Notes under the pieces: generated by a model | What the model saw: the letters and a program-made list of their open reading frames with translations, nothing else | Told to the model about the DNA's origin: nothing | Databases searched by the model: none | From: Bacillales bacterium UBA1709 | GTDB lineage: Bacteria; Bacillota_I; Bacilli_A; RFN20; UBA1709 | Length of the DNA stretch: 48,578 nucleotides | Assembly: GCA_002317215.1 (NCBI GenBank) | Contig: DCJD01000027.1 | Coordinates: 1-48,578 of the forward strand | Reading direction: 5' to 3' | Shown: in pieces, positions 8,836 through 34,606 of the stretch | Position numbering within the stretch: the first letter of the stretch is position 1 | How the letters are laid out: every line of letters begins with the position of its first letter | Made by a program: the position numbers and the translations under genes

Positions 8836-9273
8836 CTAATTAAATAAATCATTAAATGATGAGTTTTGACTAGTTATTGTAGCATTAGAATAAGAATAGT
8901 CTAAGATAAACCATTTAGTTGTATCATATGTATGTTCAACATCATTTAATACTTCTTTAGAATCATTAACATATAAAATATTATTAGTTGTACTATCCCA
9001 ATAATAATATGTATTAATAGTGGATGGGGTTAAATCATCTAATAAAGAAGAATAGTTTAATGCTTTATATACATCGGATATAGATTCTATTTTAGAGTCT
9101 ACTTGATAATTTCTTAAGGCATTATTCATTTGTATAACAATATAGTTATCATTACTATTTTTAGCTTTATCTGTAAGTTTTGAATATGTAACTACTCCTA
9201 CTAAAGATAAGATACCAAGTATTGCCATTACTACTAATAATTCTACTAATGTGAAGGAATTTTTCTTATTCAT
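8836..9273 (-). CDS. Type IV pilin-like protein with a class III signal (prepilin N-methylation motif)
   Basis: MNKKNS|FTLVELLVVMAILGILSLVGVVTY, with Glu at +5 and Ser at -1; overlaps the upstream gene by 8 nt. Confidence 0.82.
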   Translation of the reverse strand: MNKKNSFTLVELLVVMAILGILSLVGVVTYSKLTDKAKNSNDNYIVIQMNNALRNYQVDSKIESISDVYKALNYSSLLDDLTPSTINTYYYWDSTTNNILYVNDSKEVLNDVEHTYDTTKWFILDYSYSNATITSQNSSFNDLFN

Positions 9274-11143
9274 ATGCTTTTACCATCCTTACATTATTAT
9301 TTTCTATTTCAACGTTATAAGAGTTAGTTTTTCCATATATATAACCAGTATTATTTTTAATATATGATTTAAACTTAATATTAGTTATGGTACGAGGAAC
9401 ATCATTAATAGTATATGAATACATATCATAACAACCATATGAATTACTATTTATAGTAATTGATGTATTACCAAGAGTAGTATTAATAATTGATCCATGT
9501 TTATTTACAGGAATTAATTTATATTTAGTAGTTAATGAATCACTTACTTCAACATAAAAACCATATTCATAATTATCTATAATTGGTGTTGAAGAGATTA
9601 ATGCTACATCATAAGTATCATTATCTAATGTTAGTGAAGATATTATATCTGTTTCTACTTTGTTAACTTCTTTATGATCCATCTTATATGAATCAATATT
9701 CATATCTTGTCTTACTGAATCAAACATGAAGTCTAATATTTGATTTTGTACTGTAATACTTGTTCCTTCGATAGCACTTCTTAAAGTATTTGAGAAATAT
9801 CCACAACTATGTCCACCAGAGAATATAGAATATTGAGCTTTACCATATGTAGTTTCTTTTGATAAACTCCTTGCTTCATTAATCGCATTAACAAAGAATT
9901 TATTATGATATTTAGATACGTTTTTATCACTACTACCACCTATACTCCATATATTCATATTTAATAAATGACTAGCATTTTCTAAACTACAATCACTAGC
10001 GGCTGGGACAAGAGGAATTGCACAAGCAAATCTATTAGGATAATGATTAATAGTATCCATAGTAAATGCTCCACCAAGAGAACCTCCACTTATATATTGT
10101 CTTCTAGGATCAATATTATATTTAGTCATTAAATCATCAATTAATTGAGTTACTAATTGACTATCTCTACTAGGAGCAGTCATTGAAGCAATATAAGTAT
10201 TTCTATAACTACTAGAATATGAACCATCTCCAGTAACTTCACTAGTTAAACTAATTGCACCAGTTTTAGGATAACTACTGAAATTAGTTAAACTTAAACA
10301 AGCCTTTTTATAAGTAGTGTTATAAACTGAACCAGTCCAGTTAGAATCTGGATAAATATGGATTATAAAACAATCATATTTATCTTCATTAGCACTACTT
10401 GATTTAATTGCACTATCAAGACAATTAAATACACTACTACACCACCAAGCATCTCCTGGTTCTAATGTTTTATTAGATTTATATGTCCCATCGCTATTAA
10501 AGTGTGCACTTTGAGTACCTCCACTTCCAGGACACCAAACTAAAATCGGATATGACTTATTTGGATTATAGTTATATGGAATATGTAACCAATATTTTAA
10601 TGTATCAATATATGTTGTTACGACAGTTTTATTAGGATTAACAGCTTCTTTTATCTTAATACCATATTTAGCTGCTAATTTATCATAATCTTGATCAACT
10701 TTATTTTGACATTCTGCTAGAAAATTATCATATTCTTCAAATGCAAGATATGCTTCATCAATAGCATTAGATGCATTTATATATTCTGGTGAAGTTGAGT
10801 CATAAGTTTGTTCTATTTCACTAAAATAATCTTCCGCATCATAACAAGCTTGCTCTAAAGTATCATAAGTGACTTGAGAATAACCATAATTTTCTAATGA
10901 GATTGATGAATATTCTGCTAGACCTGTTAAATCACTACTATCATATAAGAATCTTTGTTCTTTAGAGACTATTCCACTAAATTCTTTATACATATATTCC
11001 TTAATACCATCTCCATCATAATCATATGAGAACATGGTTTCATATATACTAGCCGCACCAACTCTTTCTTTTTTAGAACCTAAAAAAGAGATAGATAATG
11101 TTACTACAAATATACTTGATAATAGGCATAATTTCTTGTTCAT
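9266..11143 (-). CDS. Secreted multidomain alpha/beta-hydrolase (esterase / PHB-depolymerase-like)
   Basis: Signal peptide; YWLHIPYNYNPNKSYPILVW; nucleophile elbow GGSLGG; Asp in GSSDKNV; His in GGHSC; DYDGDG Ca-loop-like motif. Confidence 0.75.
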   Translation of the reverse strand: MNKKLCLLSSIFVVTLSISFLGSKKERVGAASIYETMFSYDYDGDGIKEYMYKEFSGIVSKEQRFLYDSSDLTGLAEYSSISLENYGYSQVTYDTLEQACYDAEDYFSEIEQTYDSTSPEYINASNAIDEAYLAFEEYDNFLAECQNKVDQDYDKLAAKYGIKIKEAVNPNKTVVTTYIDTLKYWLHIPYNYNPNKSYPILVWCPGSGGTQSAHFNSDGTYKSNKTLEPGDAWWCSSVFNCLDSAIKSSSANEDKYDCFIIHIYPDSNWTGSVYNTTYKKACLSLTNFSSYPKTGAISLTSEVTGDGSYSSSYRNTYIASMTAPSRDSQLVTQLIDDLMTKYNIDPRRQYISGGSLGGAFTMDTINHYPNRFACAIPLVPAASDCSLENASHLLNMNIWSIGGSSDKNVSKYHNKFFVNAINEARSLSKETTYGKAQYSIFSGGHSCGYFSNTLRSAIEGTSITVQNQILDFMFDSVRQDMNIDSYKMDHKEVNKVETDIISSLTLDNDTYDVALISSTPIIDNYEYGFYVEVSDSLTTKYKLIPVNKHGSIINTTLGNTSITINSNSYGCYDMYSYTINDVPRTITNIKFKSYIKNNTGYIYGKTNSYNVEIENNNVRMVKAYE

Positions 11144-13177: not shown

Positions 13178-13672
13178 ATGGAAAGATATAGCGTTGCAAT
13201 AATTACATTGTCTGATAAAGGATCTAAAGGAGAAAGAGTTGATTTATCAATGCCATCTATTAAAGAAGAATTAGATAATTATCCTTTTGATGTTGTTAAA
13301 TATGAATTAATACCAGATGATTTTGATTTAATTGTTAAGGTATTAAATGATTGTGTTAATGAGAATATTAATTTAGTTTTAACTACTGGAGGAACAGGAT
13401 TTAGTGTTAGAGATGTAACTCCAGAAGCTACTAAAAAAGTAATTGAAAAAGAAGCAAATGGTATTGTTGAAGCAATGAGATTTAATAGTATGAAGTTTAC
13501 CAATAGAGCGATGCTATCAAGAGCGGTATGTGGAATAAAGAATAATACTGTTATATTAAATCTTCCAGGATCTCCTAAAGCCTGTAAAGAAAACTTAGAA
13601 TATGTGATTGAACCATTAATACATGGAATAATGACATTAATTGGAAGCAGTAGTGAATGTGGTAGAAAATAA
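13178..13672 (+). CDS. mogA: Molybdopterin adenylyltransferase (MogA/MoaB family)
   Basis: TLSDKG, TTGGTGFSVRDVTPEA, SRAVCG and NLPGSPKA. Confidence 0.92.
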   Translation: MERYSVAIITLSDKGSKGERVDLSMPSIKEELDNYPFDVVKYELIPDDFDLIVKVLNDCVNENINLVLTTGGTGFSVRDVTPEATKKVIEKEANGIVEAMRFNSMKFTNRAMLSRAVCGIKNNTVILNLPGSPKACKENLEYVIEPLIHGIMTLIGSSSECGRK

Positions 13673-14874
13673 TGATTAACGTTGTTAGTTTAAAAGATGC
13701 TCAAAAGAAGATATTTGATAATTTAATAGCATTAGATTTTGAGATTATTAAGATAGAAGACTCTTTAAATAGAGTTCTTTTTGATGATATTAAAGCAAAT
13801 GAAAACTTACCACAATTTAAAAGATCAATAGTAGATGGGTATGCCATTAAATCAAGTAATAGTGTTGGAGTTAATCAAGGAGTACCTGGAATCTTTAAAT
13901 ATAAAGGTGAGATACTAATGGGTCAAGATAATAGTTTTGAATTAAATGATTATGAAACTATTTATGTTCCAACTGGTGGACTTGTTCCTGAGTGTTTCGA
14001 TGCAGTTGCAATGATTGAAAACTGTAAAAAAGTTAATGATGAAGTTTTACTATACTCCCCATTAAAAGCTAATGAGAATATTATTAATGTTGGTGAAGAT
14101 ATTACTAAAGATAATGTAATCATTACTAAAGGAACTATTTTAAATCCATATAATATTGGCTTATTAGCGGGTCTTGGAATTGATAAAGTTAAAGTATATA
14201 AGAAATTTAAATACAGTATTATCTCTACTGGTGATGAGATAATACCTATTACTAATAAACTAGAAGCATGTAAGATAAGAGATATTAATAGTTATGCTAT
14301 TGATGCTAAACTATCTAGTTTTGGAGTATTAGTTAATAAATATCTTATTAAAGATGATTTCGATTTATTAACTAATACTCTAAATAAAGCTTTAAGTGAA
14401 TCAGATTATGTCTTTTTAAGTGGCGGAAGTAGTGTTGGTAAGAAAGATTTTACAATAGATGTAATTAGTCAAATGTCGAAAACAGTCTTATTCCATGGGG
14501 TTTCTATTAAACCTGGTAAACCAACAATGGCTTCTATATTAGATAATAAGATGATTATTGGTTTACCAGGTCATCCAATGGCTTCTCTTATGAGTTTAGA
14601 TTTAATATTTGTGGAATCTTTAAAAAGAAAGATGGGAATAGAATTAGATAATATTGTATTTGCTAAGACTAGTGTTAATTTCCCTTCTAGTCCAGGTAAG
14701 ACTACTATTATGCCACTTAAATTAACAAGAGATAAAGAATGTTTATATGCTTATCCTTTATTCTATAAATCAGGATTAATTAATATATTAAATAAAGCTG
14801 ATGGATATATGGTTATTGATGAGAAGAGTGAAGGGATATACAAGGATAGTATTGTTGAGGTTAGAAAGATATGA
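13672..14874 (+). CDS. moeA: Molybdopterin/tungstopterin metal insertase MoeA
   Basis: RSIVDGYA, PTGGLVP, STGDE, SGGSSVG, IKPGKP and LPGHP. Confidence 0.92.
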   Translation: MINVVSLKDAQKKIFDNLIALDFEIIKIEDSLNRVLFDDIKANENLPQFKRSIVDGYAIKSSNSVGVNQGVPGIFKYKGEILMGQDNSFELNDYETIYVPTGGLVPECFDAVAMIENCKKVNDEVLLYSPLKANENIINVGEDITKDNVIITKGTILNPYNIGLLAGLGIDKVKVYKKFKYSIISTGDEIIPITNKLEACKIRDINSYAIDAKLSSFGVLVNKYLIKDDFDLLTNTLNKALSESDYVFLSGGSSVGKKDFTIDVISQMSKTVLFHGVSIKPGKPTMASILDNKMIIGLPGHPMASLMSLDLIFVESLKRKMGIELDNIVFAKTSVNFPSSPGKTTIMPLKLTRDKECLYAYPLFYKSGLINILNKADGYMVIDEKSEGIYKDSIVEVRKI

Positions 14875-16748
14875 GAAGAACTTATATAGAAAATAATGAT
14901 ATGAGTGTGTTTGATATTTATCTATCTTCTTTTAAGTCTTTAGAAGTTGAAAAAGAGATTATTAAGACTAGTGAATCATTAGATAATGTTACTAGTAAAG
15001 CTATATATGCTAAAAAATGTGATCCTTTATATAATGCTTCAGCTATGGATGGAATAGCAGTTGATTCAAATTTAACACCTACTGCTAATGAACAAAATCC
15101 TTTAGTATTAAAAGAAGGTATAGACTTTGTATATGTTAATACTGGTAATCCTATTGATAGTAGATTTAATTCAGTTATTATGATTGAGAACGTTTTAGTA
15201 AATAATGATAATACAGTATCAATCATAGAACCTTCTTATCCTTGGCAAAACATTAGAGTAAAAGGTGAAAGTATTGTAGAAGGACAAATGGTAGTGCCTT
15301 CTAATCATAAAATAAGACCACAAGATATAGGGGCTATTATAGCTAGTGCTAATATAGATATTGAAGTATATAAAAAAGTAAGAGTAGGTATTATACCAAC
15401 TGGTAATGAGATGGTTAATGATGTTAATGATCTTAAAGTTGGAAAACTAATGGAATCTAATTCTAAGATGTTTAGTAGTAGTGTAATAAGTTTAAATGGA
15501 ATATCTAAAATCTATGATATTTGTTTAGATGATAAAGAAATGCTTAAAGAAAGATTATTATTAGCAGCTAAAGAAAATGATTTAGTTATTATTAATGCTG
15601 GTAGTAGTGCTGGAACTAAAGATTTTACAGTAGAAGTATTAGAAGAGATTGGTGAAGTATATGCTCATGGTTTTGCTATTAAACCTGGTAAACCTACAAT
15701 ACTTGCTAAGATAAATAATAAACCAGTTATTGGGATACCTGGATATCCAGTATCAGCTTTTCTTGTATTTGATTTATTTGTTAAACCATTAATTCTTAAA
15801 ATGAGTGGCTTAAAAATAAATAGCAGAAATAAACTTAAATGTAGATTAACTAGAAATATAGTTAGTAGTTTAAAAAATGCCGAATATGTGAGAATGAATA
15901 TTGGATATGTTAATAATGAATTTGTTGCAACACCATTAGAAAAAGGGGCTGCTCAAATAATGTCTTTAGTAAAAGCGGATGGTTTATTATATATTGATAA
16001 GAATTCTGAAGGATATAATGAAGGAAGTATTGTTGATATTGAATTATTAAAAGATATTGATGAGATAAAGAATAATTTATTAGTTATTGGAAGCCACGAT
16101 TTAATAATTGATGTTTTAAGTGATAAATTAAATATTTCTAGTGCGCACGTTGGAAGTATGGGAGGAATAATTGCTTTAACTAAAAATGAAACTCATATTG
16201 CTCCAATTCATTTGTTAGCAGATGATGGAACTTATAATATTCCTTATATTAAGAAATATTTTAAAGATAGAAAGATGGTATTAATTAAAGGTGTAGGTAG
16301 AATCCAAGGAATTATGCAAAACAATGATACTAATATTACTAGTATTAAAGAGATAAGCGATAATCATATTAGTTTTGCTAATAGACAATATGGATCAGGC
16401 ACTAGAATGCTTTTTGATCATTTATTAAAAGAAAATAGTATAAGTAGTAGTAATATATATGGATATGAAAAAGAATATTCTACTCATTTGTCGGTAGGTG
16501 TCGCAATTGAGAATAATAGTGCTAAATGTGGAATAGGTATAAAAAGTGTTGCTAATATTCTTGGATTAAAGTTTGTTGAAATAGCCAAAGAAGAATATGA
16601 TTTCTTAACTACATATGAAAACTATCAAGATAAAAGAGTTCAAGAATTTATTGAATTACTAAAATCTAAAGAAATTAAAGATAAGTTTATAGAATTTAAA
16701 GATTATGATGTTAGTAAACTAGGAGAAGTTATAATAATAGAATGCTAG
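14871..16748 (+). CDS. moeA: MoeA paralog fused to a C-terminal periplasmic-binding-protein-like domain
   Basis: SAMDGIAV, PTGNE, AGSSAG, IKPGKP and PGYPVS; C-terminal GSHD...GSMGG...ANRQYGSGTR PBP domain. Confidence 0.9.
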   Translation: MRRTYIENNDMSVFDIYLSSFKSLEVEKEIIKTSESLDNVTSKAIYAKKCDPLYNASAMDGIAVDSNLTPTANEQNPLVLKEGIDFVYVNTGNPIDSRFNSVIMIENVLVNNDNTVSIIEPSYPWQNIRVKGESIVEGQMVVPSNHKIRPQDIGAIIASANIDIEVYKKVRVGIIPTGNEMVNDVNDLKVGKLMESNSKMFSSSVISLNGISKIYDICLDDKEMLKERLLLAAKENDLVIINAGSSAGTKDFTVEVLEEIGEVYAHGFAIKPGKPTILAKINNKPVIGIPGYPVSAFLVFDLFVKPLILKMSGLKINSRNKLKCRLTRNIVSSLKNAEYVRMNIGYVNNEFVATPLEKGAAQIMSLVKADGLLYIDKNSEGYNEGSIVDIELLKDIDEIKNNLLVIGSHDLIIDVLSDKLNISSAHVGSMGGIIALTKNETHIAPIHLLADDGTYNIPYIKKYFKDRKMVLIKGVGRIQGIMQNNDTNITSIKEISDNHISFANRQYGSGTRMLFDHLLKENSISSSNIYGYEKEYSTHLSVGVAIENNSAKCGIGIKSVANILGLKFVEIAKEEYDFLTTYENYQDKRVQEFIELLKSKEIKDKFIEFKDYDVSKLGEVIIIEC

Positions 16749-17668
16749 ATAAATTTAACCGTAATATTTCCTATTTAAGATTATCAGTTACTGATTTATG
16801 CAATCTTAATTGTAAATATTGTTCATCATCTAACGAAGTCAAAGTTAGTCACTTTGACCTTTTAAGCAATGAAGAGATGGTTAAAGTTATTAAGGTTTTC
16901 CATAATCTTGGAATTAAGAAAGTTAGAATTACCGGTGGAGAACCATTGCTTAAAAAAGGTCTATGTGACCTAATTAGACAATTATCTACTTTTATTGATG
17001 ATATTGGGATAACTACTAATGGACAGCTACTTCCTGATATGATTAACGATTTAAAGGATGCTGGTTTAAAAAGCATTAATGTTAGTTTAGATACGTTAGA
17101 TCCTATTAAGTATCAATATCTAACTTTAGGTAAGATTGATAATGTATTAAAAGGATTAGAGATGGCATATAATCTTCATCTATCGATCAAGATTAATGCA
17201 GTATTATTAAAAGGAGTCAATGATGAGGAGATATTTGAATTAGCTAAGTATGCTAAAAGTATTAATGCTAAGTTTAGATTTATTGAATTAATGCCTTTTA
17301 CAACAACATTAGATTATTTTAATAAATATTATATAAGTAGTGATGAGATTATTAAGAAATATAACCTTATATATATTACATCTAATGGAACTTCAGAGTA
17401 TTATAAGAATGCACAAGGATTAGAGATTGGATTTATTCGACCAATTAGTCATAAATTCTGTAAAGAATGTAATAGAATTAGAATGACAAGTTTTGGAAAA
17501 ATAATCCCATGTCTTCATTCTAAAGATACTTATGATATAAAAGAATATATAGATGATGAGAAAAGATTAGAAGAAAGATTAATAGAAATTATTAATTTAA
17601 AACCTAAAGAGCATCATATTAATGAAGGGAATATTCAAAGTTTGGATATGCGAAAGATAGGAGGATAG
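16742..17668 (+). CDS. moaA: GTP 3',8-cyclase (radical SAM)
   Basis: CNLNCKYC, TGGEPLL, C-terminal CxxC-x13-C and terminal IGG. Confidence 0.95.
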   Translation: MLDKFNRNISYLRLSVTDLCNLNCKYCSSSNEVKVSHFDLLSNEEMVKVIKVFHNLGIKKVRITGGEPLLKKGLCDLIRQLSTFIDDIGITTNGQLLPDMINDLKDAGLKSINVSLDTLDPIKYQYLTLGKIDNVLKGLEMAYNLHLSIKINAVLLKGVNDEEIFELAKYAKSINAKFRFIELMPFTTTLDYFNKYYISSDEIIKKYNLIYITSNGTSEYYKNAQGLEIGFIRPISHKFCKECNRIRMTSFGKIIPCLHSKDTYDIKEYIDDEKRLEERLIEIINLKPKEHHINEGNIQSLDMRKIGG

Positions 17669-17671
17669 AAT

Positions 17672-18145
17672 ATGGATAATAAATTAACACATTTTAATGA
17701 AGAAGGACTATCAAAGATGGTTGATGTTAGTGATAAGATAGTCACACATAGAGAAGCAAGAGCTAAGATTGAAGTTCATATGGATAAAGATACTATTGAG
17801 AAGATTAGACAAGGTAGTATTTCTAAAGGCAACGTATTAGCGGTTGCTCAAGTTGCTGGAATATGTGCTGCTAAAAAGAATTATGAATTAATTCCAATGT
17901 GTCATCAAATACCATTAACTGGTGTAGATATTAAATATGAATATAAAGATTATGGAATAGAGATAACTAGTATTGTTAAGACAGATTATAAAACAGGAGT
18001 TGAAATGGAAGCATTAACGGCTTGTAGTATAGCAGCATTAACAATATATGATATGTGTAAAGCTATTGATAAGAAGATGTATTTTACTTCTTGTAGATTA
18101 GTATATAAAGAAGGCGGAAAAAGTGGGGTATTTGAAAATGACTAA
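17672..18145 (+). CDS. moaC: Cyclic pyranopterin monophosphate synthase
   Basis: [34 protein letters not shown] and IYDMCKA. Confidence 0.95.
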
Positions 18146-18593
18146 AATTGGAAGTGTAATTGCTGTTAATATCAGTGAGGTAAAAGGTGTTGTTAAACAT
18201 CCGGTTGATTTTGTAGAAACTATCGTTGATATGGGAATAAAGGGTGATGCTCATGCAGGACCTGGATTAAGACAAGTTAGTTTACTTGCTAAAGAATCAA
18301 TTGATAAGTTTCAAGAAATGAAAGGCAAGATTAGTGGAATTTGTGAAGGCAAATTTGCTGAAAATATTACTACTAGTGGAGTTATATTATATGAACTACC
18401 AGTTGGAACAAGACTTATGATTGGAACTAGTTTAATGGAAGTAAGTCAAATCGGTAAGAAATGTCATGCTGATCAAGGCTGCGAAATATCTAAAATATTT
18501 GGTACTTGTGTAATGCCAAAAGAAGGTATCTTTACAATTGTTATTGAACCTGGAATTATCAAAGCAGGTGACGATATTTTATTAGTTGACTAA
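18138..18593 (+). CDS. MOSC-domain sulfur-carrier protein
   Basis: [29 protein letters not shown] and C-VMPKEGIF; the ATG at 18138 overlaps the moaC stop. Confidence 0.88.
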
Positions 18594-18618
18594 AAAAGAG
18601 ATCAATGATCTCTTTTTT
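18592..18618. terminator. Bidirectional terminator between the MOSC gene and tupC
   Basis: AAAAAAGAGATC-aat-GATCTCTTTTTT. Confidence 0.9.
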
Positions 18619-19265
18619 TATTTAGAATATAAATCTATAAAGTTTTTAATGATAGGATTTGTTGTTTTATCAATAGTTTTTGGTGTTAATGAATCATCAA
18701 TTACTTTTCCTTTATCTAAAAAGATTATATGATCTGCTAATCTTTTAGCTTGGGATATTGAATGAGTAATTAGTATAATGGTTGTTTTATTTTCTATATT
18801 AGTTTTCTTAATTAGTTCTTCGGCTTTTATCATAGCATCAATATCCATTGATGCTGTTGGTTCATCTAATATAATAGTTTTTGAATTACTTAATAAAGTT
18901 CTTATTAAAGATACCTTAGATAATTCTCCTCCACTTAATCCTTTAGCGTTTTGTTTAGCTATCTTATTTAGACCAAATATTGTCATATATTCTTCTACTT
19001 TTTCTTTATCAGATATATTAAGCGAAGCGTTTTTATAAACCGACATATTAAATGCAAATGATTTTTGAGGCATATATATAACATTATTATCTAGTTCTAT
19101 ATGTTTATCGTTTTTAATAACTTTACTAATAATCTTACCAAGTGTTGATTTACCAGATCCATTTGGTCCAATGATGGCATAAACTTTACCATCATCAAAA
19201 GAAATATTATCAATATCTAATACAACCCTATCTTTATATTTCTTATAAATATTATTTAGAATCAT
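18618..19265 (-). CDS. tupC: Tungstate ABC transporter ATPase
   Basis: GPNGSGKST, LSGGE and LDEPTASMD; last gene of the tup operon. Confidence 0.85.
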   Translation of the reverse strand: MILNNIYKKYKDRVVLDIDNISFDDGKVYAIIGPNGSGKSTLGKIISKVIKNDKHIELDNNVIYMPQKSFAFNMSVYKNASLNISDKEKVEEYMTIFGLNKIAKQNAKGLSGGELSKVSLIRTLLSNSKTIILDEPTASMDIDAMIKAEELIKKTNIENKTTIILITHSISQAKRLADHIIFLDKGKVIDDSLTPKTIDKTTNPIIKNFIDLYSK

Positions 19266-19953
19266 ATTTAAACCTCATTTGAATAATATAAACAATAATA
19301 TTAAAAATTAATGAAAGGAAAATAAGAATAATACCTAGTGCTATTCCATAACTAAACATACCCATATTGGTATATCGCATAATAGCAGTTGTCATTACAT
19401 CACTTTTCCAAACAATAGCTCCACCGATCATCGATACTGCTCCTACTTCCGCAATTGATCTAGAGAAGCCAAGTAAATATGTAGTAATTAATTGAAACTT
19501 CGTTTCATTAATTGTTAATAGCATTGTTTTAACAAATCCTAATTTAAGTCCTTTAGTTGTTTCTTGGATAGAAGTAGCAATTGAACTTACAAATGTGGAT
19601 ATTGTTGCAATTAAAACTGGGGTAATTAAAATTATTTGAGCAACAACCATTCCCTTTATATTATGAAAAAACTTTAATCCACCCAACGCTCCAACTGGTA
19701 CAAATAACATATAGCATATTAAACCACAAACAACAGGAGGCACTCCTGTTAATGTATTGTTTATTACGGTAATTATATGTTTGCCTTTAAAATTAAAGTA
19801 TCCAAGTAATATACCTAAAGGTATTGCTAATAGTAAAGAAATTAAAGAGCTATATAGACATAGCTTTGCTGTTCGCAAAACTATGTCTATTAACTCCTCA
19901 TTTCCTCCGGATAATATTAATTCAATGGCTTGTTTGAAGCCTCTTTCAATCAT
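19252..19953 (-). CDS. tupB: Tungstate ABC transporter permease
   Basis: TGVPPVVCGL, GMVVAQ, FSRSIAEVGAVSMIGG and VMTTAI. Confidence 0.9.
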   Translation of the reverse strand: MIERGFKQAIELILSGGNEELIDIVLRTAKLCLYSSLISLLLAIPLGILLGYFNFKGKHIITVINNTLTGVPPVVCGLICYMLFVPVGALGGLKFFHNIKGMVVAQIILITPVLIATISTFVSSIATSIQETTKGLKLGFVKTMLLTINETKFQLITTYLLGFSRSIAEVGAVSMIGGAIVWKSDVMTTAIMRYTNMGMFSYGIALGIILIFLSLIFNIIVYIIQMRFKYDSK

Positions 19954-19956
19954 TTA

Positions 19957-20922
19957 TTATTTTCCAAAGTTTTTGTAGTAAGTTAAGAATGTTGCTTTAT
20001 CTGATAAGATATAAGCATTTGTATTTTCAGCATCTAATAGTGCAGCACCCATTCCTTTTCCAGTACTATTGTACCATGAAGCATAAGCTTGGAAGCTAGA
20101 TGCTTCTGCTGTAATACCTAATGCTGTTGGCCATAATGAAATTTCTTTTGTATGAGTTCCTGAATTATCCCCTCTTGAAACGAAAGCATATTGTTCAGTT
20201 GAGATTTTTTCAAAAGCTTGTTTAACAGTCATTTCAGTAGTGATGTTTAAAGGATTAGATTTAGGTCCAACTAATACGAAATAGTTGTACATGAAATTTA
20301 ATCTTGCAGCACTTTGACCAGTGATAATTCTAGCATATCCATCATTTACAAATGCTTCTTCTTGAGTTTTTGAGTGAACAAGAATTAAGTCTGCTGCGCC
20401 ATCTTTAGCAGCTTGAATAGCTTTTCCTGTACCTGCTGAATAGATTTCGATATCATAACCATATTTTGTTTCAAAAATAGGTAAAACATATCCAAGTAAT
20501 CCTGAATCGTTAACTGATGTAGTTGTAGATAATCTAATATCTTTAGTTTCACTAGTAGCACTTGGAATAGTTGCAGTGCTAGTTGGATGGCCATCTTTTA
20601 AGTAGAATAAGTATTCACCATATTCCGCATAACCATAACCTGCGCAAGCATTTAAACCTTCTTCAGATAAGAACCAGTTAATTAATGCATCAGCACCAAC
20701 AGTATTGATTGAAACTTCTGGTTTAGATGCAAAAGCGGCTGCATTTGGATCTACAGCTAGTAATGAATAATTATTAATCATATCACTATCTGATTCTAAA
20801 ATAATTTTTAAATTACTTACTGGTGTTTCTTCTTTATCTTTGTTTTTACCACAGCTACTTAAAGCAGCTACTGCTCCAAAAACAACAAAAAGAGCACTTA
20901 AAAATTTGAACTTTCTTTGCAT
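19957..20922 (-). CDS. tupA: Tungstate-binding lipoprotein, circularly permuted
   Basis: Lipobox LSSC24; TTTSVNDSG, GTGKA, VHSK and SRGDNSGTHTKE TupA signatures; the segment that is normally C-terminal sits at aa 38-108. Confidence 0.88.
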   Translation of the reverse strand: MQRKFKFLSALFVVFGAVAALSSCGKNKDKEETPVSNLKIILESDSDMINNYSLLAVDPNAAAFASKPEVSINTVGADALINWFLSEEGLNACAGYGYAEYGEYLFYLKDGHPTSTATIPSATSETKDIRLSTTTSVNDSGLLGYVLPIFETKYGYDIEIYSAGTGKAIQAAKDGAADLILVHSKTQEEAFVNDGYARIITGQSAARLNFMYNYFVLVGPKSNPLNITTEMTVKQAFEKISTEQYAFVSRGDNSGTHTKEISLWPTALGITAEASSFQAYASWYNSTGKGMGAALLDAENTNAYILSDKATFLTYYKNFGK

Positions 20923-20925
20923 ATA

Positions 20926-21030
20926 TTTCTCCTTTTCGCAATGGAAGGCTTATTCATTTCTAAATAAACCCCGGCTTACATCCATGGACTATGTAATTCT
21001 TTAGGATATTTAAGCTCGGATATAAGAGAT
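20926..21030 (-). ncRNA. Moco/tungsten-cofactor riboswitch (Rfam MOCO_RNA_motif-like) in the tupA leader
   Basis: Minus strand UCCGAGC...CCUAAAG...GCCGGG...UUAUUUA-GAAA-UGAAUAA-GCCUUCCAU...GAAAAGGAGA. It has a GNRA-capped stem, and the 3' strand contains the SD 5 nt before the ATG. Confidence 0.85.
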
Positions 21031-21180
21031 GTTCTTTCTCTTACATATTAACTATACCAAAAAAATACGGTTTGTTTAACAAATTAAACAAAATATATAA
21101 GCCATATATTTTGTATTGGTTTATTGTTTTAATCTTTATAATTTGATAAATTATAATTACTTATAAGGAGATTTTTTGAC

Positions 21181-21555
21181 ATGTATAGAATAGATACGAA
21201 AAAATGTGCCGATTGTGGATATTGTGCATATGTATGTCCATTTGGTGCTATTACTCATAATGTTGAGGAAAAATATTATGAGATTGATCAAGAAAAATGT
21301 AAGAAATGTGGATTATGTTTTAAAGCTTGTATAAGCGGATTTGTCTTAAAAGATGAAGAGGATAAACCAGTTGAAAACATTCACATTAGTGATGATTGTA
21401 TTGGTTGTACTTTATGTTCTAAAGTATGTCCAGTTAGTGCAATTAAAGGTCAAGTTAAAATGAAACATGAAATTGATCCTGCTAAATGTATTAAATGTGG
21501 GGTTTGTGCAACAAAATGTGCTAAGAAAGCAATTGTTGTGGAAAGAGGAAAGTAG
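21181..21555 (+). CDS. Polyferredoxin with four CxxCxxCxxxC motifs
   Basis: CADCGYCAYVC, CKKCGLCFKAC, CIGCTLCSKVC and CIKCGVCATKC; SD AAGGAG. Confidence 0.92.
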   Translation: MYRIDTKKCADCGYCAYVCPFGAITHNVEEKYYEIDQEKCKKCGLCFKACISGFVLKDEEDKPVENIHISDDCIGCTLCSKVCPVSAIKGQVKMKHEIDPAKCIKCGVCATKCAKKAIVVERGK

Positions 21556-21563
21556 GTGTAATT

Positions 21564-23462
21564 ATGGCAACAAAATATAAATCATATTGGGGTAAAGTTG
21601 TTAAAGTTAATTTAACAACAAAAGAAGTTACAGACTACGAAATTAGTGACAAAGATAGATTATTATATCTTGGTGGAAAGTGTATTGCTGCTAAGATTAT
21701 TTACGATAATATTAAATCTAAAATTGATCCATTAAGTGAAGAGAACATGATTGTTATTTCAACATCACCATTAAATGCTGTTGGAGCACCTTGTTCTTCT
21801 AGATTTAATACATCAACTATTTCACCATTAACTGGTTATTATACTTCCAGTAACTGTGGTGGTAACTTTGGTTTATCTTTAAAAAGAGCTGGTATTGATG
21901 CTTTAATTATTACTGGAAAAGCAAAAGATAAGACATATTTAGTTATTACTAATAATGGTATTGAATTTAAAGATGCTACTCCATATTGGGGTATGAAGAC
22001 TCAAGAAGTTCAAGAAGCTATACCAGATAAAGGTGCTAAATTTGTTATTGGACCTGCTGGTGAAAACTTAGTTAGATATGCTTGTGTTATCTCTGGTGAA
22101 AGAGCTAGTGGTAGAGGTGGAGTTGGTGCAGTATTTGGTTCTAAAAACTTAAAAGGTTTAGTTGCTTTTGGTATGAAATCTCCAGAAGTATATAATCCTA
22201 AAAAATTCCATAAGAATAATATATTATGGACTAAGAGATTAAGAACTCACCCAACTACTGGTAAGATTTTACCAGAACTTGGTACCGCATCATTAGTAAC
22301 GCCAATGCATGCTAAGAACTTACTTGCAACAAATAACTATAGAACTGGAAAGTTTGAACACTTTGATGATGTAAGTGGAGAAACTTTAAGAGATGAATAT
22401 CTAGTTAGAAACGATGGTTGTACAACTTGTCCTATTAGATGTGCTAGAGTTGTTACTGTAGATGGAAAGAGTGTTAAAGGACCAGAAGTTGAAACTATCG
22501 GTTTATTTGGACCTAATATTAGAAACAATAATATGCAAGCTATCCTAGACTGGAACTATTATATGGATGATCTCGGACTTGATACTATTAGCTGTGGTAA
22601 TACTATTTCATGGGCTATGGAAGCAAATGAAAAAGGATTCTGGAAGAATGGATTAGAATTTGGAAAGATTGATAATATTACTCAAACTCTTGATGATATT
22701 GCTCATAGAAAAGGTATCGGTAATGAACTTGCTGAAGGATCTAAGAGATTAAGTGAAAAATATGGTGGCAAAGAATTTGCTATGAACGTTAAAGGTATGG
22801 AACTTGCCGCTTATGAACCTCGTGGTGCTGTTGGACAAGGCTTAGGTTATGCTGTTGCTAACCGTGGTGGATGCCATCTTAATGGTGGATATTTAGTTGT
22901 TCTTGAAGGCTTAGGATTATCTGTAAATCCTTACACTCCAAAAGGAAAAGCCGCATTCTGTGTTATGTTCCAAGACTTAATGGAAGCATGTAGTGCTGGT
23001 GGTAACTGTTTATTTACAACTTATGCTTTCTTCCCATCTATTTTAATTGCTAAACCTAATAGTTGGATTACTAGAACTGTTAATAAAGTATTTACTAGTT
23101 TTGGTGGTATTGTTACTGTTTTATTAAAGAATCCACGTATTGCTGCAATTCATTTACCACATATGCTACCTCACACTAAGGCATTAAAATATGCTACTGG
23201 TATGTATATGGATTTAGGTAAATTCTTACAAATAGGTGAAAGAGGATACAACTTAGAAAGATTAATTGATGTAAATCTTGGTGTAAGTAAGAAAGATGAT
23301 GAATTGCCATTAAGATTAACAACTGAATTACAAATTGCAACTAATAAAGATTCTAAAGTTCCTTTAGATGTATTAAGAGCTAAATATTATAAAGTTAGAG
23401 GTTGGGATGAAAATGGTATTCCAACAGATAAATTATTAAAGAAATTAAAGATTGAAAAATAA
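21564..23462 (+). CDS. aor: Tungsten-dependent aldehyde:ferredoxin oxidoreductase (AOR/WOR family)
   Basis: GRGGVGAVFGSKNLK, CTTCPIRC plus GNCLF (4Fe-4S ligands), GPEVET, DDLGLD (DxxGxD), RGGCH and RGWDENGIP. Confidence 0.93.
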   Translation: MATKYKSYWGKVVKVNLTTKEVTDYEISDKDRLLYLGGKCIAAKIIYDNIKSKIDPLSEENMIVISTSPLNAVGAPCSSRFNTSTISPLTGYYTSSNCGGNFGLSLKRAGIDALIITGKAKDKTYLVITNNGIEFKDATPYWGMKTQEVQEAIPDKGAKFVIGPAGENLVRYACVISGERASGRGGVGAVFGSKNLKGLVAFGMKSPEVYNPKKFHKNNILWTKRLRTHPTTGKILPELGTASLVTPMHAKNLLATNNYRTGKFEHFDDVSGETLRDEYLVRNDGCTTCPIRCARVVTVDGKSVKGPEVETIGLFGPNIRNNNMQAILDWNYYMDDLGLDTISCGNTISWAMEANEKGFWKNGLEFGKIDNITQTLDDIAHRKGIGNELAEGSKRLSEKYGGKEFAMNVKGMELAAYEPRGAVGQGLGYAVANRGGCHLNGGYLVVLEGLGLSVNPYTPKGKAAFCVMFQDLMEACSAGGNCLFTTYAFFPSILIAKPNSWITRTVNKVFTSFGGIVTVLLKNPRIAAIHLPHMLPHTKALKYATGMYMDLGKFLQIGERGYNLERLIDVNLGVSKKDDELPLRLTTELQIATNKDSKVPLDVLRAKYYKVRGWDENGIPTDKLLKKLKIEK

Positions 23463-23464
23463 AT

Positions 23465-23710
23465 ATGATTAAAGTTTTATTATATGGTGAAGCACGCCTT
23501 ATATTTAATGTTAAAGAGATAGAAGAAAAAGGCAGTACTGTAAAGGAATTGTTAAGTAATCTAGCTCTTAGATATGATAAAAAATATAAGGATCTTAAGA
23601 AATTCTTGATATATGTTAATGACGTTAACATTACTGCTTTACGTATGTTTAGAACTAAATTAAATGATGGTGATGTTATTATGATGCTTTCTCCATCCTC
23701 AGGAGGTTAG
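23465..23710 (+). CDS. moaD: MoaD/ThiS sulfur carrier
   Basis: Ubiquitin-like size and C-terminal SSGG. Confidence 0.88.
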   Translation: MIKVLLYGEARLIFNVKEIEEKGSTVKELLSNLALRYDKKYKDLKKFLIYVNDVNITALRMFRTKLNDGDVIMMLSPSSGG

Positions 23711-23711
23711 T

Positions 23712-24317
23712 ATGATTAATAAAACAATAGCCATCGTTGGTCTTGGGGGATTGGGCGGATTTGTTTGTGAATATATTGGTAGACTTGGATTTGAGAAAAT
23801 TATTCTTATCGATAAAGATAAATTTTCTAAATCTAATATTAATCGTCAGCTCCTATGCACTACAAATACATTAGATACTTATAAGACAGATAATTACGAA
23901 GAAAAACTGAAACTAATTAGTGATTCTAAAGTAATAAATCATAAAGAATTTATCACTTTAGATAATCTATATTTATTAGATGGTGCAGACATTATTATTG
24001 ATTGCTTAGACAACATTTCAACTCGTTTAATTATTGAGAAATATGCTTCTAATAATAACAAAGTTATTATTCATGGTGCAATTGGAGAAAAAACTGGACA
24101 AGTATGTTTATGTTTACCTTCTTATAAGATGTTATCAAAATTATATAAAAATACTTCTGAAATTAAAAAACAAACATACGGTTATGCAGTATCCTTAATT
24201 GCTAGTTTAGAAGTTGAAGTATTAATGAAATATATCAACAATGATTATGCTGATCTAGTAGATAAAGTCATCTATGTTGATCTAAATGATTTAGAAATTA
24301 AAAAGCTTAAATTATAA
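23712..24317 (+). CDS. moeB: MoeB/ThiF-family adenylyltransferase
   Basis: VGLGGLGG, DKDKFSKSNINRQ and DCLDNISTR; no Zn-binding CxxC pairs. Confidence 0.82.
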   Translation: MINKTIAIVGLGGLGGFVCEYIGRLGFEKIILIDKDKFSKSNINRQLLCTTNTLDTYKTDNYEEKLKLISDSKVINHKEFITLDNLYLLDGADIIIDCLDNISTRLIIEKYASNNNKVIIHGAIGEKTGQVCLCLPSYKMLSKLYKNTSEIKKQTYGYAVSLIASLEVEVLMKYINNDYADLVDKVIYVDLNDLEIKKLKL

Positions 24318-29728: not shown

Positions 29729-30478
29729 ATGAAGTATTATTTTTTGCAATCTGGTAGTGCTGGAAATAGTTGCCTTATAGTAACGAAAGATTCAAAAATC
29801 CTTATTGATGTTGGTTTAACATATTCTTGCTTAAAAGATAAATTGAAAATATTAGGTTATTCAATAACGGATATTGATGCTTTTTTGATTACTCATGAAC
29901 ATGGAGATCATATTAAAGGGATTCAATATATTCCTTATTCAAAAGTTTATGCTACAAAAGAAACACTTTCTGGTAATGAGTTTCATGATATAGAACCATA
30001 TAAGATGTTTGAAATAAATAATACTCATATTGTTCCTTTAACCATTAGTCACGATATTAGAAATGGGGTAGGTTATGTTATTGATGATGAAAATCAAAGA
30101 TTAGTTTATATGACTGATACAGGCAAAGTATTAGTTAAGAATAGAGCATTTATGAAAGATGCTGATCATTATTGCATCGAATCAAATCACAATTTAGAGA
30201 TGTTAATGAATTGTCCTTATCCTGATTTTCTTAAAATTAGAATATCAAGTGATAAAGGACATTTATCTAATGAACAATCTGGTAAACTAATGGGTAAATT
30301 AATTGGTAAAAACACCAAAACAATAACATTAGCCCATATATCTGAGAAAACTAATACACCTGATTTAGCCTTAAAAGATTTTAAAGAACAATTGGATTTA
30401 GCAAATATAGATTATTCAAATATACGAATTAAAGCCGCTGATAGATATGAAATAACAATAGGAGAAGATAATGATTAA
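29729..30478 (+). CDS. yycJ: YycJ/WalJ metallo-beta-lactamase-fold hydrolase
   Basis: SGSAGNS, THEHGDH, ESNH, GHLSN and LAHIS. Confidence 0.88.
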   Translation: MKYYFLQSGSAGNSCLIVTKDSKILIDVGLTYSCLKDKLKILGYSITDIDAFLITHEHGDHIKGIQYIPYSKVYATKETLSGNEFHDIEPYKMFEINNTHIVPLTISHDIRNGVGYVIDDENQRLVYMTDTGKVLVKNRAFMKDADHYCIESNHNLEMLMNCPYPDFLKIRISSDKGHLSNEQSGKLMGKLIGKNTKTITLAHISEKTNTPDLALKDFKEQLDLANIDYSNIRIKAADRYEITIGEDND

Positions 30479-31652
30479 AGGATTTAAAGTCTTATCATTA
30501 GTTTTTATGGTTTTCTCATTAACCTCAATATCTCAAAAGAAAGATGTTGCAATTAATTGCAACACTATTTCTGATGAAGAAATAACTCTAACTAATCAAG
30601 TAAACTTAACTAGTTCAATGAATGATTTTTATAATGAAGCTATTAAAGGTGTTGTTAAAGTATCAAATTATGCAAAGACTACTACTCAAGGTGTTTCTAG
30701 TTATGTAAAACAATCAATTGGGTCTGGTTTTTTCTATGATGAAGATAGCTCATATTATTATCTATTAACAAATCATCATGTTATTGAATCATATAATATG
30801 GTTTCAATAACTATCCATTCAAATCAAGAGATAAAAAACGTTAAAGTTATTGGATATGATGATAAACAAGATGTTGGAGTTTTAAGAGTAAATAAGTCAG
30901 AGTTAAACTCAGCAATTAAAGTATTAGAATTATTAAAAGATAATAATTTTATTAATCCAACAATCGGAGATGATGTCGTAGCACTTGGTTGTCCTGGAGG
31001 CCAAGGATTTAGTGGTACTTTAAGTAAAGGTATTGTAAGTGGAGTTAATCGTATTGTTAGTGAATCAAATAATAATATTTATAATCAAGATCATGCGATT
31101 CAAACGGATTGCGCAATTAATCCTGGGAATAGTGGTGGACCACTTTTAAATATGAATATGGAAGTTATTGGTGTTAATACAATGAAGATTTCTTCAGATA
31201 GCAGTATTAGAGAAGAAGCTCTTAATTTTGCTTTGCCTATTCATGATATGTATAAAACATCAATGCTTATTAGAAAACAATTTAATGATTTTGGTCAAAA
31301 CAGTGTTATTCAATTTAATAATAGATTATCTATTTCTTCTTCTAAGCAATTTAAATCTATTCGAGATATGAGTATTAAAGAAAGAGATGTCTATGGAGTT
31401 ATAAATAAAAACCAAGGTGTAGTATGTTTAAATGATGATTCTACACTTAATGTTAAAAGAGGAAGTTTAATTGTTAGTATTAATGGTGTTGCTATTAATA
31501 ACGTATGTGAACTAAGAAGAGAACTACTAGATATTTATTATCAAGGAAACTTAACTAATAAGATTGTTGTACAAGTTTATAAAAACGTTAATGGAAATCT
31601 TAATGATTCTATATCTAATATTTCTATTAGTCCTAAGATTATTAATGTGTAG
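30471..31652 (+). CDS. htrA: HtrA-like S1C serine protease with an intact triad and a PDZ-like C terminus
   Basis: TNHHV (His), QDVGV (Asp) and NPGNSGGP (Ser); N-terminal signal/anchor. Confidence 0.88.
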   Translation: MIKGFKVLSLVFMVFSLTSISQKKDVAINCNTISDEEITLTNQVNLTSSMNDFYNEAIKGVVKVSNYAKTTTQGVSSYVKQSIGSGFFYDEDSSYYYLLTNHHVIESYNMVSITIHSNQEIKNVKVIGYDDKQDVGVLRVNKSELNSAIKVLELLKDNNFINPTIGDDVVALGCPGGQGFSGTLSKGIVSGVNRIVSESNNNIYNQDHAIQTDCAINPGNSGGPLLNMNMEVIGVNTMKISSDSSIREEALNFALPIHDMYKTSMLIRKQFNDFGQNSVIQFNNRLSISSSKQFKSIRDMSIKERDVYGVINKNQGVVCLNDDSTLNVKRGSLIVSINGVAINNVCELRRELLDIYYQGNLTNKIVVQVYKNVNGNLNDSISNISISPKIINV

Positions 31653-31664
31653 GAAGGAGAATGT

Positions 31665-32918
31665 ATGAGAAAGATTTTAAAAGCAGTTTTTGTATCAATA
31701 TTCTGTTTGATATTTATGAGTGGTTGTACTTCTTTACTTCCTGTTTTTACCACGGTCAATGAAACTAACAATAACAAGAGTGTTTGTCAATATGTTACAA
31801 AACAAACCACTTCAAATACTAATGAATCTAATACCACATTACTTTCCTCTTCAATTTCTAGTTTTCTAGATGCTAAAAATTCTAGTGTTCGTGTAATGGC
31901 TTGTTATAGTGTTAATGATAACGAATACGAAATGAGTAGTAGTGGATTTATTGTAGATGGTGAATATAATTCATCAACCCATAAATATGTCTACTATATT
32001 GTAACTAGTGCAAGTGGCATATTTTATAGATATGTAACTAATCCAAGCGATTCAATTGATATTGAAAATGATGTTAATATTGTTAGAAGTGGAACTTTTG
32101 AAATGTATATGGAAGATGGTAATGCATATACTGGAGAGATGGTTGGTTATTTTGATGCTTATGATGTTGCTATTTTCAAATTTCAGTCTGATAAAGAATA
32201 TGATGTATTAGAGTTGTCTAATGATGAAGTAAGTATTGGAGATACAGTTTATGCTTATGGAACTCCAGTAGATGGATACAATTTATTAAATACTTTAATA
32301 AAAGGAACAGTATCTGGTACCAATCGTTTATCAGATTTATATTTTAGTGAAACTATTAATAGCAAAACATATAGCGCTGTTATTTCTTCTTATCCAACCT
32401 TCCAATTTGATGGATCTATTAATCTTGGAATGGAAGGCGGGCCAATTATTAATGCAAACGGACAAGTAGTTGGAATGATTGGATATAGATATGGTACAAA
32501 TGCTGGTACTTATATGTATGAATCGTTGTCTTTCGGATTATCAAGTGCCAATCTAAAACCTATCATTGAATCAATTATCTCAACTGGTAGTTTTACGAAA
32601 CCATTACTTGGTATTACTATTACTGATATTTATAATGTTTCAGAGAAAGAAAACTATGAATGGATTGAAGATAATCAAATTTATAGTGGAGTTGTTATTT
32701 TAAAAGATGGAATTAGCGATAACTCCCCAGCTTATAACGCTTCAATTAGTGATAATAGTGTTTTAATTAAGTTAGTTAGTGATGGTAAAGAATATAATAT
32801 TTCTAATTTATCTTGTTTATATAGTGCTTTAGTTCAAATTAATCCTTCTAATCCTTTATCAGTAACTTATATTGATAGCAATAATCAAACACATACAAAG
32901 GTGGTTAATTTACAATGA
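31665..32918 (+). CDS. HtrA-like lipoprotein pseudoprotease (His and Ser missing)
   Basis: Lipobox-like MSGC; SSGFIV, YDVAI, YAYGTP, KGTVSG and FQFDGSINLG fit the trypsin-like fold; VTSASGI replaces TNxHV and GMEGGP replaces GNSGGP. Confidence 0.8.
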   Translation: MRKILKAVFVSIFCLIFMSGCTSLLPVFTTVNETNNNKSVCQYVTKQTTSNTNESNTTLLSSSISSFLDAKNSSVRVMACYSVNDNEYEMSSSGFIVDGEYNSSTHKYVYYIVTSASGIFYRYVTNPSDSIDIENDVNIVRSGTFEMYMEDGNAYTGEMVGYFDAYDVAIFKFQSDKEYDVLELSNDEVSIGDTVYAYGTPVDGYNLLNTLIKGTVSGTNRLSDLYFSETINSKTYSAVISSYPTFQFDGSINLGMEGGPIINANGQVVGMIGYRYGTNAGTYMYESLSFGLSSANLKPIIESIISTGSFTKPLLGITITDIYNVSEKENYEWIEDNQIYSGVVILKDGISDNSPAYNASISDNSVLIKLVSDGKEYNISNLSCLYSALVQINPSNPLSVTYIDSNNQTHTKVVNLQ

Positions 32919-33382
32919 AACTTATCTGTGTTGGAAAATTAAAAGAAGCATTTAATAGAGACGCTTTTAATGAATATGCTAAAAGACTATCTAAATATAC
33001 TAAATTAGAAGTTATCGAACTTAATGACGAAAGCATTAATGACGATTCAGTAGCATCTATTAATAAAGCAGTTGCAATAGAAAGTGAAAGAATTTTATCT
33101 AAAATAAATGATAAAGATTATGTTATTTTACTTGCGATAAAAGGAAATATGCTTGATAGTGAAGGATTATCTAATAAAATTAATGAGGTAATGAATCAAA
33201 GCAAACCTATTGCTTTTGTAATAGGTGGTTCTTATGGTGTTGATGATAGTGTTATAAAAAGAGCTAATTATCAATTATCCTTTTCAAAATTAACATTTCC
33301 TCATCAATTATTTAGAGTTATGCTATTGGAACAAATTTATCGTAGTTTCAAGATTATTAAGAAGGAGAAATATCATAAATGA
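32915..33382 (+). CDS. rlmH: 23S rRNA pseudouridine-1915 N3-methyltransferase
   Basis: MKLICVGKLKE, FVIGGSYG, SKLTFPHQLFRVMLLEQIYRSF and YHK. Confidence 0.96.
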   Translation: MKLICVGKLKEAFNRDAFNEYAKRLSKYTKLEVIELNDESINDDSVASINKAVAIESERILSKINDKDYVILLAIKGNMLDSEGLSNKINEVMNQSKPIAFVIGGSYGVDDSVIKRANYQLSFSKLTFPHQLFRVMLLEQIYRSFKIIKKEKYHK

Positions 33383-34605: not shown

Positions 34606-34606
34606 T

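Follow-up and report, generated by a model that had tools for sequence, protein, structure and literature searches.

The tupA gene of the stretch analysed here (contig DCJD01000027.1, 48,578 nucleotides [nt], hereafter the window) very probably encodes a circularly permuted form of TupA, the binding protein of a TupABC tungstate importer, whose function would have been retained and whose present order would have arisen by duplication, fusion and trimming of the gene. A reading made from the letters and ORF translations without database searches (the sequence-only reading) had proposed that the product is a natural circular permutant of TupA. Split, de-permuted and N-terminal-block profile alignments agree on this point, and the sequence-level case for a natural permutation of TupA is strong: the last ~70 residues of canonical TupA come first in this protein, followed by a linker and then by the part with which a canonical TupA begins (Table 1).

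The gene is an intact open reading frame (ORF) for 321 amino acids (aa) on the minus strand (19957-20922), with its ATG at 20922-20920 and its stop codon at 19957-19959. The coordinates given by the sequence-only reading were right, and its residue numbering (C24, aa 38, YLFY, aa 112-128, aa 129 and SDKATFL) held on the sequence. After the signal peptide and lipobox, the sequence LKIIL begins at aa 38, YLFY occupies aa 104-107, IRLSTTTS begins at aa 129, and SDKATFL lies at aa 307-313, eight residues ahead of the stop. An MKK...(L/A)xxC start is common to all members of the family alignment, and a gene for prolipoprotein diacylglyceryl transferase, lgt, is present within the window at 38956-39858. 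In Pfam, the protein gave only a partial match, to PBP_like_2 (PF12849; aa 124-315 against profile positions 6-207 of 267), together with a weak match to SBP_bac_11.

A PDB sequence search with the protein returned TupA-type chains only, namely 3muq, 3lr1, 5my5 and 3kn3 (E 5e-38 to 2e-31) and, more weakly, 3cvg. Every match had two parts: aa 127-317 aligned with chain residues ~5-180, and aa 37-95, with less strength, with residues 183-251 at the C-terminal end of the chain. A split alignment against TupA, as the sequence-only reading had called for, placed the moved block on the C-terminal segment. No permuted TupA member was found among the PDB sequences in this whole-PDB search. A profile of the N-terminal block, built from 11 family members (81 columns) and compared with 177,635 PDB sequences, gave exactly four matches at E <= 10; each was a TupA structure matched at its C-terminal end, and the best E value was 2.6e-4. 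The hidden Markov model (HMM) of the same block matched the C-terminal end in 73 of 73 full-length relatives of canonical order, and the match ended a median of 8 residues short of the C-terminus. A de-permuted construct, in which aa 126-321 were followed by aa 34-111, aligned with 3muq in a single stretch (3-258 against 6-234). De-permuting raised the 3muq score from 134 to 143 bits, and 3lr1, 5my5 and 3kn3 behaved alike.

The AlphaFold model of the protein (mean predicted local distance difference test score [pLDDT] 88.3, predicted template modelling score 0.78) predicts the type II two-lobe binding-protein fold. Its best Foldseek matches were 3kn3, 3muq, 3lr1 and 5my5 (probability 1.0, 34-38% identity), in an alignment that is sequential and covers ~195 columns. 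The moved block was modelled with a pLDDT of 87-98 over aa 41-90 in the order strand-strand-helix-helix-helix; it is made up of the last lobe-B strand (LKIIL), a crossing, and then a lobe-A strand and helices.

To place the cut, we used the lobe limits described for Desulfovibrio alaskensis TupA (5MY5), in which lobe A comprises residues 2-76 and 201-251, the central strand residues 77-89, and lobe B residues 91-200 (PMC5517513). Y52 of the window protein matches Y201 of D. alaskensis TupA, the point where lobe A resumes. The new N-terminus is the last lobe-B strand (LKIIL, aa 38-42) and the new C-terminus the last lobe-B helix (DKATFLTYY); when the alignment is mapped on the published limits, the cut falls in a surface loop inside lobe B, between the last helix and the last strand, and not at a domain boundary. 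Because the cut lies inside lobe B, both inter-lobe crossings, and with them the two-crossover type II topology, are kept. The loss of one hinge crossing, which would leave a single inter-lobe connection, was considered and rejected on the 5MY5 lobe limits. With the new termini in a lobe-B loop, the lipid anchor would hang from lobe B and not from lobe A. The linker is Ser/Thr-rich over aa 112-128, is invariant in the family alignment at P113, I119, P120, A122 and T126, and lies in a region (aa 111-130) modelled with a pLDDT of 97-98. The residues named for the tungstate site of D. alaskensis TupA are T9-11, S12, H59, R118, T124 and D170 (PMC5517513). Their equivalents in the window protein are T133-135, S136, H183, R250, T256 and D308, with R250 and T256 held in the motif SRGDNSGT. 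All of these proposed ligand residues fall in the unmoved block and are invariant or nearly so across the family, in keeping with the earlier statement that the binding motifs (TTTS, the His and SRGDxSGT) are kept.

The permuted order is widespread; the homolog counts given here are lower bounds, taken from listings of best matches. The best 120 homologs all had the order of the window protein, at 55-65% identity and full coverage, and so did at least 255 of the 411 gathered proteins, counted as clusters at 90% identity. An exhaustive profile search, run over 1.84 billion representatives, yielded ~19 distinct clusters (50% identity) of full-length proteins with this order; a genome-collection scan with the single window protein gave 5 loci, and a search of sequencing runs listed no match. 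Permuted homologs come from NCBI, ENA, JGI and Logan, on contigs of up to 350 kb. Where hosts are named, they are metagenome genomes of Oscillospiraceae, Faecousia, Candidatus Limivicinus and 'Clostridia bacterium', and the database label of these proteins is just 'substrate-binding domain-containing protein'. Literature searches for a permuted TupA or a permuted tungstate binder found none; permuted binding proteins as such are already known.

We also observed a deep branch of the permuted family without TTTS (LFAASP, LLASTT, LAVEETL and similar sequences stand in its place), in which the order and the linker motif are kept. Its members are P0139, P0129, P0126, P0146, P0136, P0151, P0132, P0160, P0157, P0159, P0215, P0269 and P0244. 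The loss of TTTS suggests that the ligand may have changed in this branch.

The topology of each relative was called by scoring every match with one HMM for each of the two blocks, and identities among topologies were computed after rotation to a common frame. Close relatives of canonical order (P0125, P0135, P0137 and P0141) have the motifs of the same sub-clade, TTTSVNDSGLL, FMYNYFV and DKATFL. At least four cut points besides that of the window tupA were found among the relatives, making at least five in all. P0131, P0143 and P0154 are cut ~16 residues earlier and start with GAYIxxDKATFL; the P0148 cluster (10 members) and P0240 are cut ~40-50 residues earlier and start near WYVSAGxGMG; P0122 (5 members, 7 contigs) is cut at the beginning of the central hinge strand; and P0149 is cut within the moved block. 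P0122, P0143 and P0148 stand in tupA-tupB-tupC operons beside cofactor or oxidoreductase genes; P0149 and P0240 each come from a single short contig.

P0122 shares 79.9% identity with members of the window family and at most 60% with any canonical protein; being nearer to permuted than to canonical proteins, it is best read as a second-round re-permutation. The nearest relative of P0148 is the canonical P0141 (64.9% identity), and that of P0240 is a canonical protein from Symbiobacterium (64.3%; its identity to the window family is 42.6%). With nearest relatives of canonical order, these two point to independent events. The linkers carry a further trace of their origin. That of P0240 (LFFADAGKK-IATPTTPAPQTTETLKPANPALILATTTS) corresponds to the C-tail (LFFPDAGKS…) of its closest canonical relative, P0236 (64% identity), joined to the lipoprotein tether of the same protein (…TPAEPEKPATPENPELILATTTS). 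In P0148, the last part of the linker (EEPENNVIRLSTTTS) is similar to that of the tether in the canonical relative P0135 (ETPENPVIRLATTTS). Several cut points have one linker in common.

The search for tandem TupA homologs that the sequence-only reading had suggested was made with a doubled query, two copies of the mature window protein joined end to end. P0412 (580 aa; L014, 332-2074) and P0413 (572 aa; L015, 5001-6719), which come from different samples, ranked directly below the window protein. Both are lipoproteins in which two full TupA units are fused in frame, on the plan signal peptide, tether, [N-C], 11-residue linker, [N-C], and in both cases tupB and tupC follow. The two repeats are 96% identical within P0412 and 91% within P0413; the same repeat is 84-88% identical between the two proteins, and identity to permuted and canonical members is 55-58%. 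That the repeats are closer within than between the proteins suggests gene conversion or repeated duplication. Among the tandems turned up by the doubled query, none had the window family's own linker (…LFYLKDGRPVSTAEIPAATEETK…).

Other candidate tandems did not hold. P0004 and P0089 (430 and 393 aa) were rejected as upstream start-codon mis-calls. P0145 (466 aa) was dropped as an intermediate, since its contig end has three tupA copies with frameshifts (L011, 3001-5593); these successive copies, which have a 651-aa multi-binding-domain protein upstream, are either a real array or a long-read assembly artefact. P0144 (827 aa; L012, 3001-5484) was rejected because it is distant and without TTTS; it is a clean fusion of one WtpA/ModA-like and two TupA-like domains. 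Ten long TupA-containing proteins (434-603 aa) were scanned, and a second TupA copy was found in none. The partners in long TupA fusions were SLH, fn3, Oxidored_molyb with or without cytochrome c, the TupB permease and a second ModA-like domain, and in some proteins nothing recognisable; the set of TupA-like fusions comprises P0144, P0190, P0202, P0203, P0205, P0219, P0225, P0266, P0155 and P0161.

Taken together, the tandems, the occurrence of more than one cut point, and linkers composed of the old C-tail and tether (in two lineages) strongly support an origin by duplication, fusion and trimming. The route would begin with a tandem duplication of tupA. The copies would then be fused in frame without the second signal peptide, leaving the C-tail and tether as a linker, and the ends would finally be trimmed by an in-frame deletion after the signal peptide and by a new stop codon. 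Living relatives appear to document each of these steps. The sequence-only reading had proposed duplication and trimming, and the tandems P0412 and P0413, the four or more other cut points and the linker anatomy bear it out. Its suggestion that tandem TupA proteins could be the intermediate stands in part: such tandems exist, but P0412 and P0413 are not direct ancestors. On balance, we lean towards a broader view in which TupA of Clostridia-type bacteria is a permutation hot spot, with canonical order, in-frame tandems, at least five positions of the termini, and at least three independent fusions, including the re-permutation P0122. All forms whose neighbouring genes could be read (P0122, P0143, P0148, P0412 and P0413) belong to intact tupABC operons.

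The genes around tupA fit a role in tungsten metabolism (Table 1). tupA, tupB and tupC lie on one strand, abutting or overlapping, with tupA first, and TupB and TupC are the best specific models for the second and third genes. Just upstream of tupA is a molybdenum/tungsten cofactor (Moco/Tuco) riboswitch aptamer in whose alignment the P3 columns of RF01055 are deleted. P3-less representatives of Moco RNA correlate with tungsten-cofactor metabolism (Regulski et al., PMC2408646). The ribosome-binding site is part of the 3′ strand of its P1 stem, and the aptamer extends into the start codon of tupA. A Moco RNA upstream of permuted tupA was also found in one of the six related loci scanned (L004). 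The promoter-like site ~18 nt upstream of the riboswitch is a plausible promoter, with the limit that such sites are no commoner in the region than in shuffled sequence. Divergent from tupA are a ferredoxin gene and a gene for an aldehyde:ferredoxin oxidoreductase, which is likely a tungsten-using enzyme; this is a family of tungstoenzymes (PMC11980592). With the pterin cofactor genes on either side, the locus appears to combine tungsten uptake, cofactor synthesis and a tungsten enzyme in one self-contained island.

One of the cofactor genes encodes a 625-aa fusion (14871-16748, plus strand) of a full MoeA (MoeA_N, MoCF_biosynth and MoeA_C) with a C-terminal PBP_like domain (PF12727), an oxyanion-binding-type domain, and it adjoins a plain moeA gene. 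The pair of MoeA and MoeA-PBP_like recurs beside permuted tupA in L006, L009 and L010.

These elements can be assembled into a working model of the importer. The mature chain would begin in lobe B and cross to lobe A through the former C-terminal part, after which an ordered 18-residue linker would lead to the canonical N-terminal TTTS strand; the chain would then run on through lobe A, the central hinge strand and lobe B, and end after the last lobe-B helix. Since the fold, both crossings and all proposed oxyanion ligands are kept, the protein should bind WO4(2-) as canonical TupA does. WO4(2-) would be held in the inter-lobe cleft, followed by closure and docking on TupB2C2. Binding of tungsten cofactor to the P3-less riboswitch would sequester the ribosome-binding site and probably switch translation initiation off, as its position in the closing stem suggests. 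Imported tungsten probably feeds the adjacent cofactor genes and the aldehyde:ferredoxin oxidoreductase.

Several observations weigh against the view of the protein as a functional TupA permuted by duplication, fusion and trimming. It misses the NCBIfam TupA model NF041772 (cutoff 400), reaching 154 bits over two stretches, of which the best spans only profile positions 8-192 of 266; the shortfall in this colinear full-length test is due, at least in part, to the permutation. The TupB and TupC models likewise score under their equivalog cutoffs, and some motifs depart from those of characterised TupAs (TTTSVND against TTTSTxD; DKAT against DRGT). The deep branches of bootstrapped neighbour-joining trees are poorly supported, and the independence of the events therefore rests on pairwise identities and linker anatomy. 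Lastly, the linker of P0412 and P0413 differs from that of the window family, which makes these tandems cousins of the presumed ancestor. A permuted TupA-fold protein whose physiological ligand is molybdate or another oxyanion would be compatible with the departing motifs and with the loss of TTTS in the deep permuted branch, where a change of ligand would have occurred within the family, and variants of TupA at R118 show that selectivity is easily tuned (PMC5517513). We nevertheless consider a different ligand unlikely, as the window protein retains TTTS, H183, R250, T256 and D308, its operon is preceded by a riboswitch of the tungsten-cofactor-linked class, and the operon faces a member of a tungstoenzyme family (PMC11980592).

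The permutation itself could be apparent rather than real if the N-terminal block were not homologous to the TupA C-terminus at all, being an unrelated or separately acquired lookalike extension. The second stretch is weak alone in single-sequence searches (independent E 63-2100), and the authors of the TpMglB-2 study raised a separate extension for their Treponema pallidum protein, without favouring it (PMC4990184). For the window protein such an extension is very improbable, given that the block's profile matches TupA C-termini only in the whole PDB, its HMM matches them in every canonical relative, the de-permuted sequence gives one continuous and higher-scoring alignment, and relatives with other cut points retain the native junction between the two blocks. 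An assembly or gene-calling artefact, or a decaying remnant of a rearranged gene, deserves scarcely any credence. The apparent tandem P0145 does sit on an error-ridden, frameshifted contig end, and the cut-point variants P0149 and P0240 are rare; the window ORF, however, is intact and equipped with a lipobox-bearing signal peptide, a riboswitch and a ribosome-binding site, the same order recurs in hundreds of independent sequences from all four archives, and conservation is strong, linker included. A route by gene fission and re-fusion in swapped order is known in other protein families. It would account for the failure to find a tandem with the window family's own linker, but we regard it as improbable: pairs of split N-only and C-only genes were not seen among the profile-search matches, and the 'Cseg only' matches P0213 and P0239 (192-194 aa), too short for full-length proteins, may be cut at contig ends. 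Full tandem fusions, in contrast, exist in the same sub-clade, the linkers are composed of old C-tail and old tether, and one linker is common to several cut points, as expected of a doubled gene trimmed in various ways.

The closest known system is canonical TupA itself (Eubacterium acidaminophilum; D. alaskensis G20, 5MY5; G. sulfurreducens, 3LR1; 3MUQ and 3KN3). Shared features are the type II two-lobe fold, the TTTS, His, SRGDxSGT Arg/Thr and Asp residues, tupB and tupC as neighbours, a tungsten-enzyme context, and 34-38% identity over ~195 aligned residues. The window protein differs in having the C-terminal ~70 residues first, a conserved 18-residue linker, and termini and anchor in lobe B. 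TpMglB-2 (Tp0684), the 'Type Ic / Cluster Bc' glucose-binding protein of T. pallidum, is likewise a natural permutant and a tethered lipoprotein, and it has kept ligand binding (PMC4990184); homologs of it are found chiefly in organisms whose binding proteins are tethered (PMC4990184). TpMglB-2 is, however, an MglB homolog of type I / cluster B fold that needs an extra fourth crossover, and the sequence of its permuted part is barely similar to that of the canonical protein, which left its origin unclear (PMC4990184). The window protein is a type II TupA homolog whose moved block has demonstrable homology and for which intermediates exist. The window protein is analogous to the 'Type Ic' subclass, not a member of it. 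Using CPSARST, a permutation relationship was reported among the glycine-betaine-binding proteins (OpuAC, ProX), ModA and CysB, which indicates that type II folds tolerate natural permutation (PMC2395249). Those cases are remote, structure-only, below 24% identity and between families (PMC2395249), unlike the TupA permutation, which is confined to a single orthologous family in which sequence identity is clear and several cut points and living tandems occur. ModA and WtpA belong to the same superfamily, deliver oxyanions to an ABC importer, and gave the weak SBP_bac_11 and Foldseek matches; with other binding motifs and 12-16% identity in the Foldseek matches, they are not the closest family.

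These results bear on how tungstate importers are counted. Because curated models name the permuted TupA generically, surveys of tungsten use among gut microbes that rely on TupA-specific models may under-count importers in Oscillospiraceae-type bacteria. If the hot-spot view is true, a large share of gut tungstate transporters would be invisible to curated TupA models, and the family would offer an unusually complete living series for duplication, fusion and trimming. Canonical, doubled and trimmed forms in one operon context are a rare natural test set for the origin of permutations and for tolerated cut sites. Use of TupA as the sensing element for tungsten has been proposed (PMC5517513); binding-protein biosensors need permissive new termini, and at least five natural sites are now available in TupA. 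The shift of the anchor from lobe A to lobe B may also matter for the docking of tethered binding proteins on the transporter.

Table 1. Features of the permuted tupA gene and of the tungsten-related locus around it (window coordinates)
Feature	Position	Strand	Evidence
tupA, circularly permuted form, 321-aa lipoprotein	19957..20922	-	homology searches, split alignments, AlphaFold, Foldseek
Signal peptide aa 1-23 and lipobox Cys24 (LSSC), start MQRKFKFLSALFVVFGAVAALSSC	20851..20922	-	read from sequence
Moved block, aa 37-110; homologous to last ~70 residues of canonical TupA	20593..20814	-	PDB, profile, HMM and de-permuted alignments
Linker, aa 111-128 (GHPTSTATIPSATSETKD), old C-terminus to old N-terminus (both on lobe A)	20539..20592	-	family alignment, AlphaFold
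Unmoved block, aa 129-321; homologous to canonical TupA residues ~5-180	19960..20538	-	Pfam/NCBIfam, PDB, de-permuted alignment
tupB-like ATP-binding cassette (ABC) permease	19252..19953	-	ABC_perm1 147.5 bits (cutoff 100); TupB NF041773 128 bits (cutoff 320); BPD_transp_1
tupC-like ABC ATPase, 215 aa, without C-terminal TOBE-type domain	18618..19265	-	ABC_tran; TupC NF041774 positions 1-209 of 319
Moco/Tuco riboswitch aptamer (RF01055), P3-less, just upstream of tupA	20914..21033	-	52.8 bits against gathering 36, E 6.5e-10, full model 1-135
Ribosome-binding site AAAGGAG, 6 nt before ATG, in aptamer closing stem	20929..20935	-	sequence and riboswitch structure line
Promoter-like site TAAACA, 16 nt, TG-TATAGT, ~18 nt upstream of riboswitch	21051..21078	-	consensus scan only
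4Fe-4S ferredoxin, divergent from tupA	21181-21555	+	Fer4
Aldehyde:ferredoxin oxidoreductase, divergent from tupA	21564-23462	+	AFOR_N 225 bits, AFOR_C 380 bits
Pterin cofactor genes: mog/moaB-like, moeA, moeA-PBP_like fusion, moaA, moaC, MOSC-domain gene	13178..18593	+	Pfam
moaD-like (ThiS family) and moeB/thiF-like genes	23465..24317	+	Pfam

The surrounding chromosome is Bacillota-like, with a GC content of 27.8% and a gdpP-rplI-dnaB neighbourhood. Further observations were made elsewhere in the window. At 33379-36058 (plus strand), a 408-aa ORF with an E1-E2_ATPase domain only is followed, one base after its stop, by a 483-aa ORF that has its own ribosome-binding site and no Pfam match; together they may represent a P-type ATPase-like pair that has been split or truncated. 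Two adjoining genes for trypsin-like (HtrA-type) serine proteases of 393 and 417 aa lie at 30471-32918 (plus strand). At 8836-11143 (minus strand), a gene for a 625-aa S9-peptidase/esterase-like protein is followed directly downstream, on the same strand, by one for a 145-aa protein whose N-terminus has a type IV pilin-like methylation motif.

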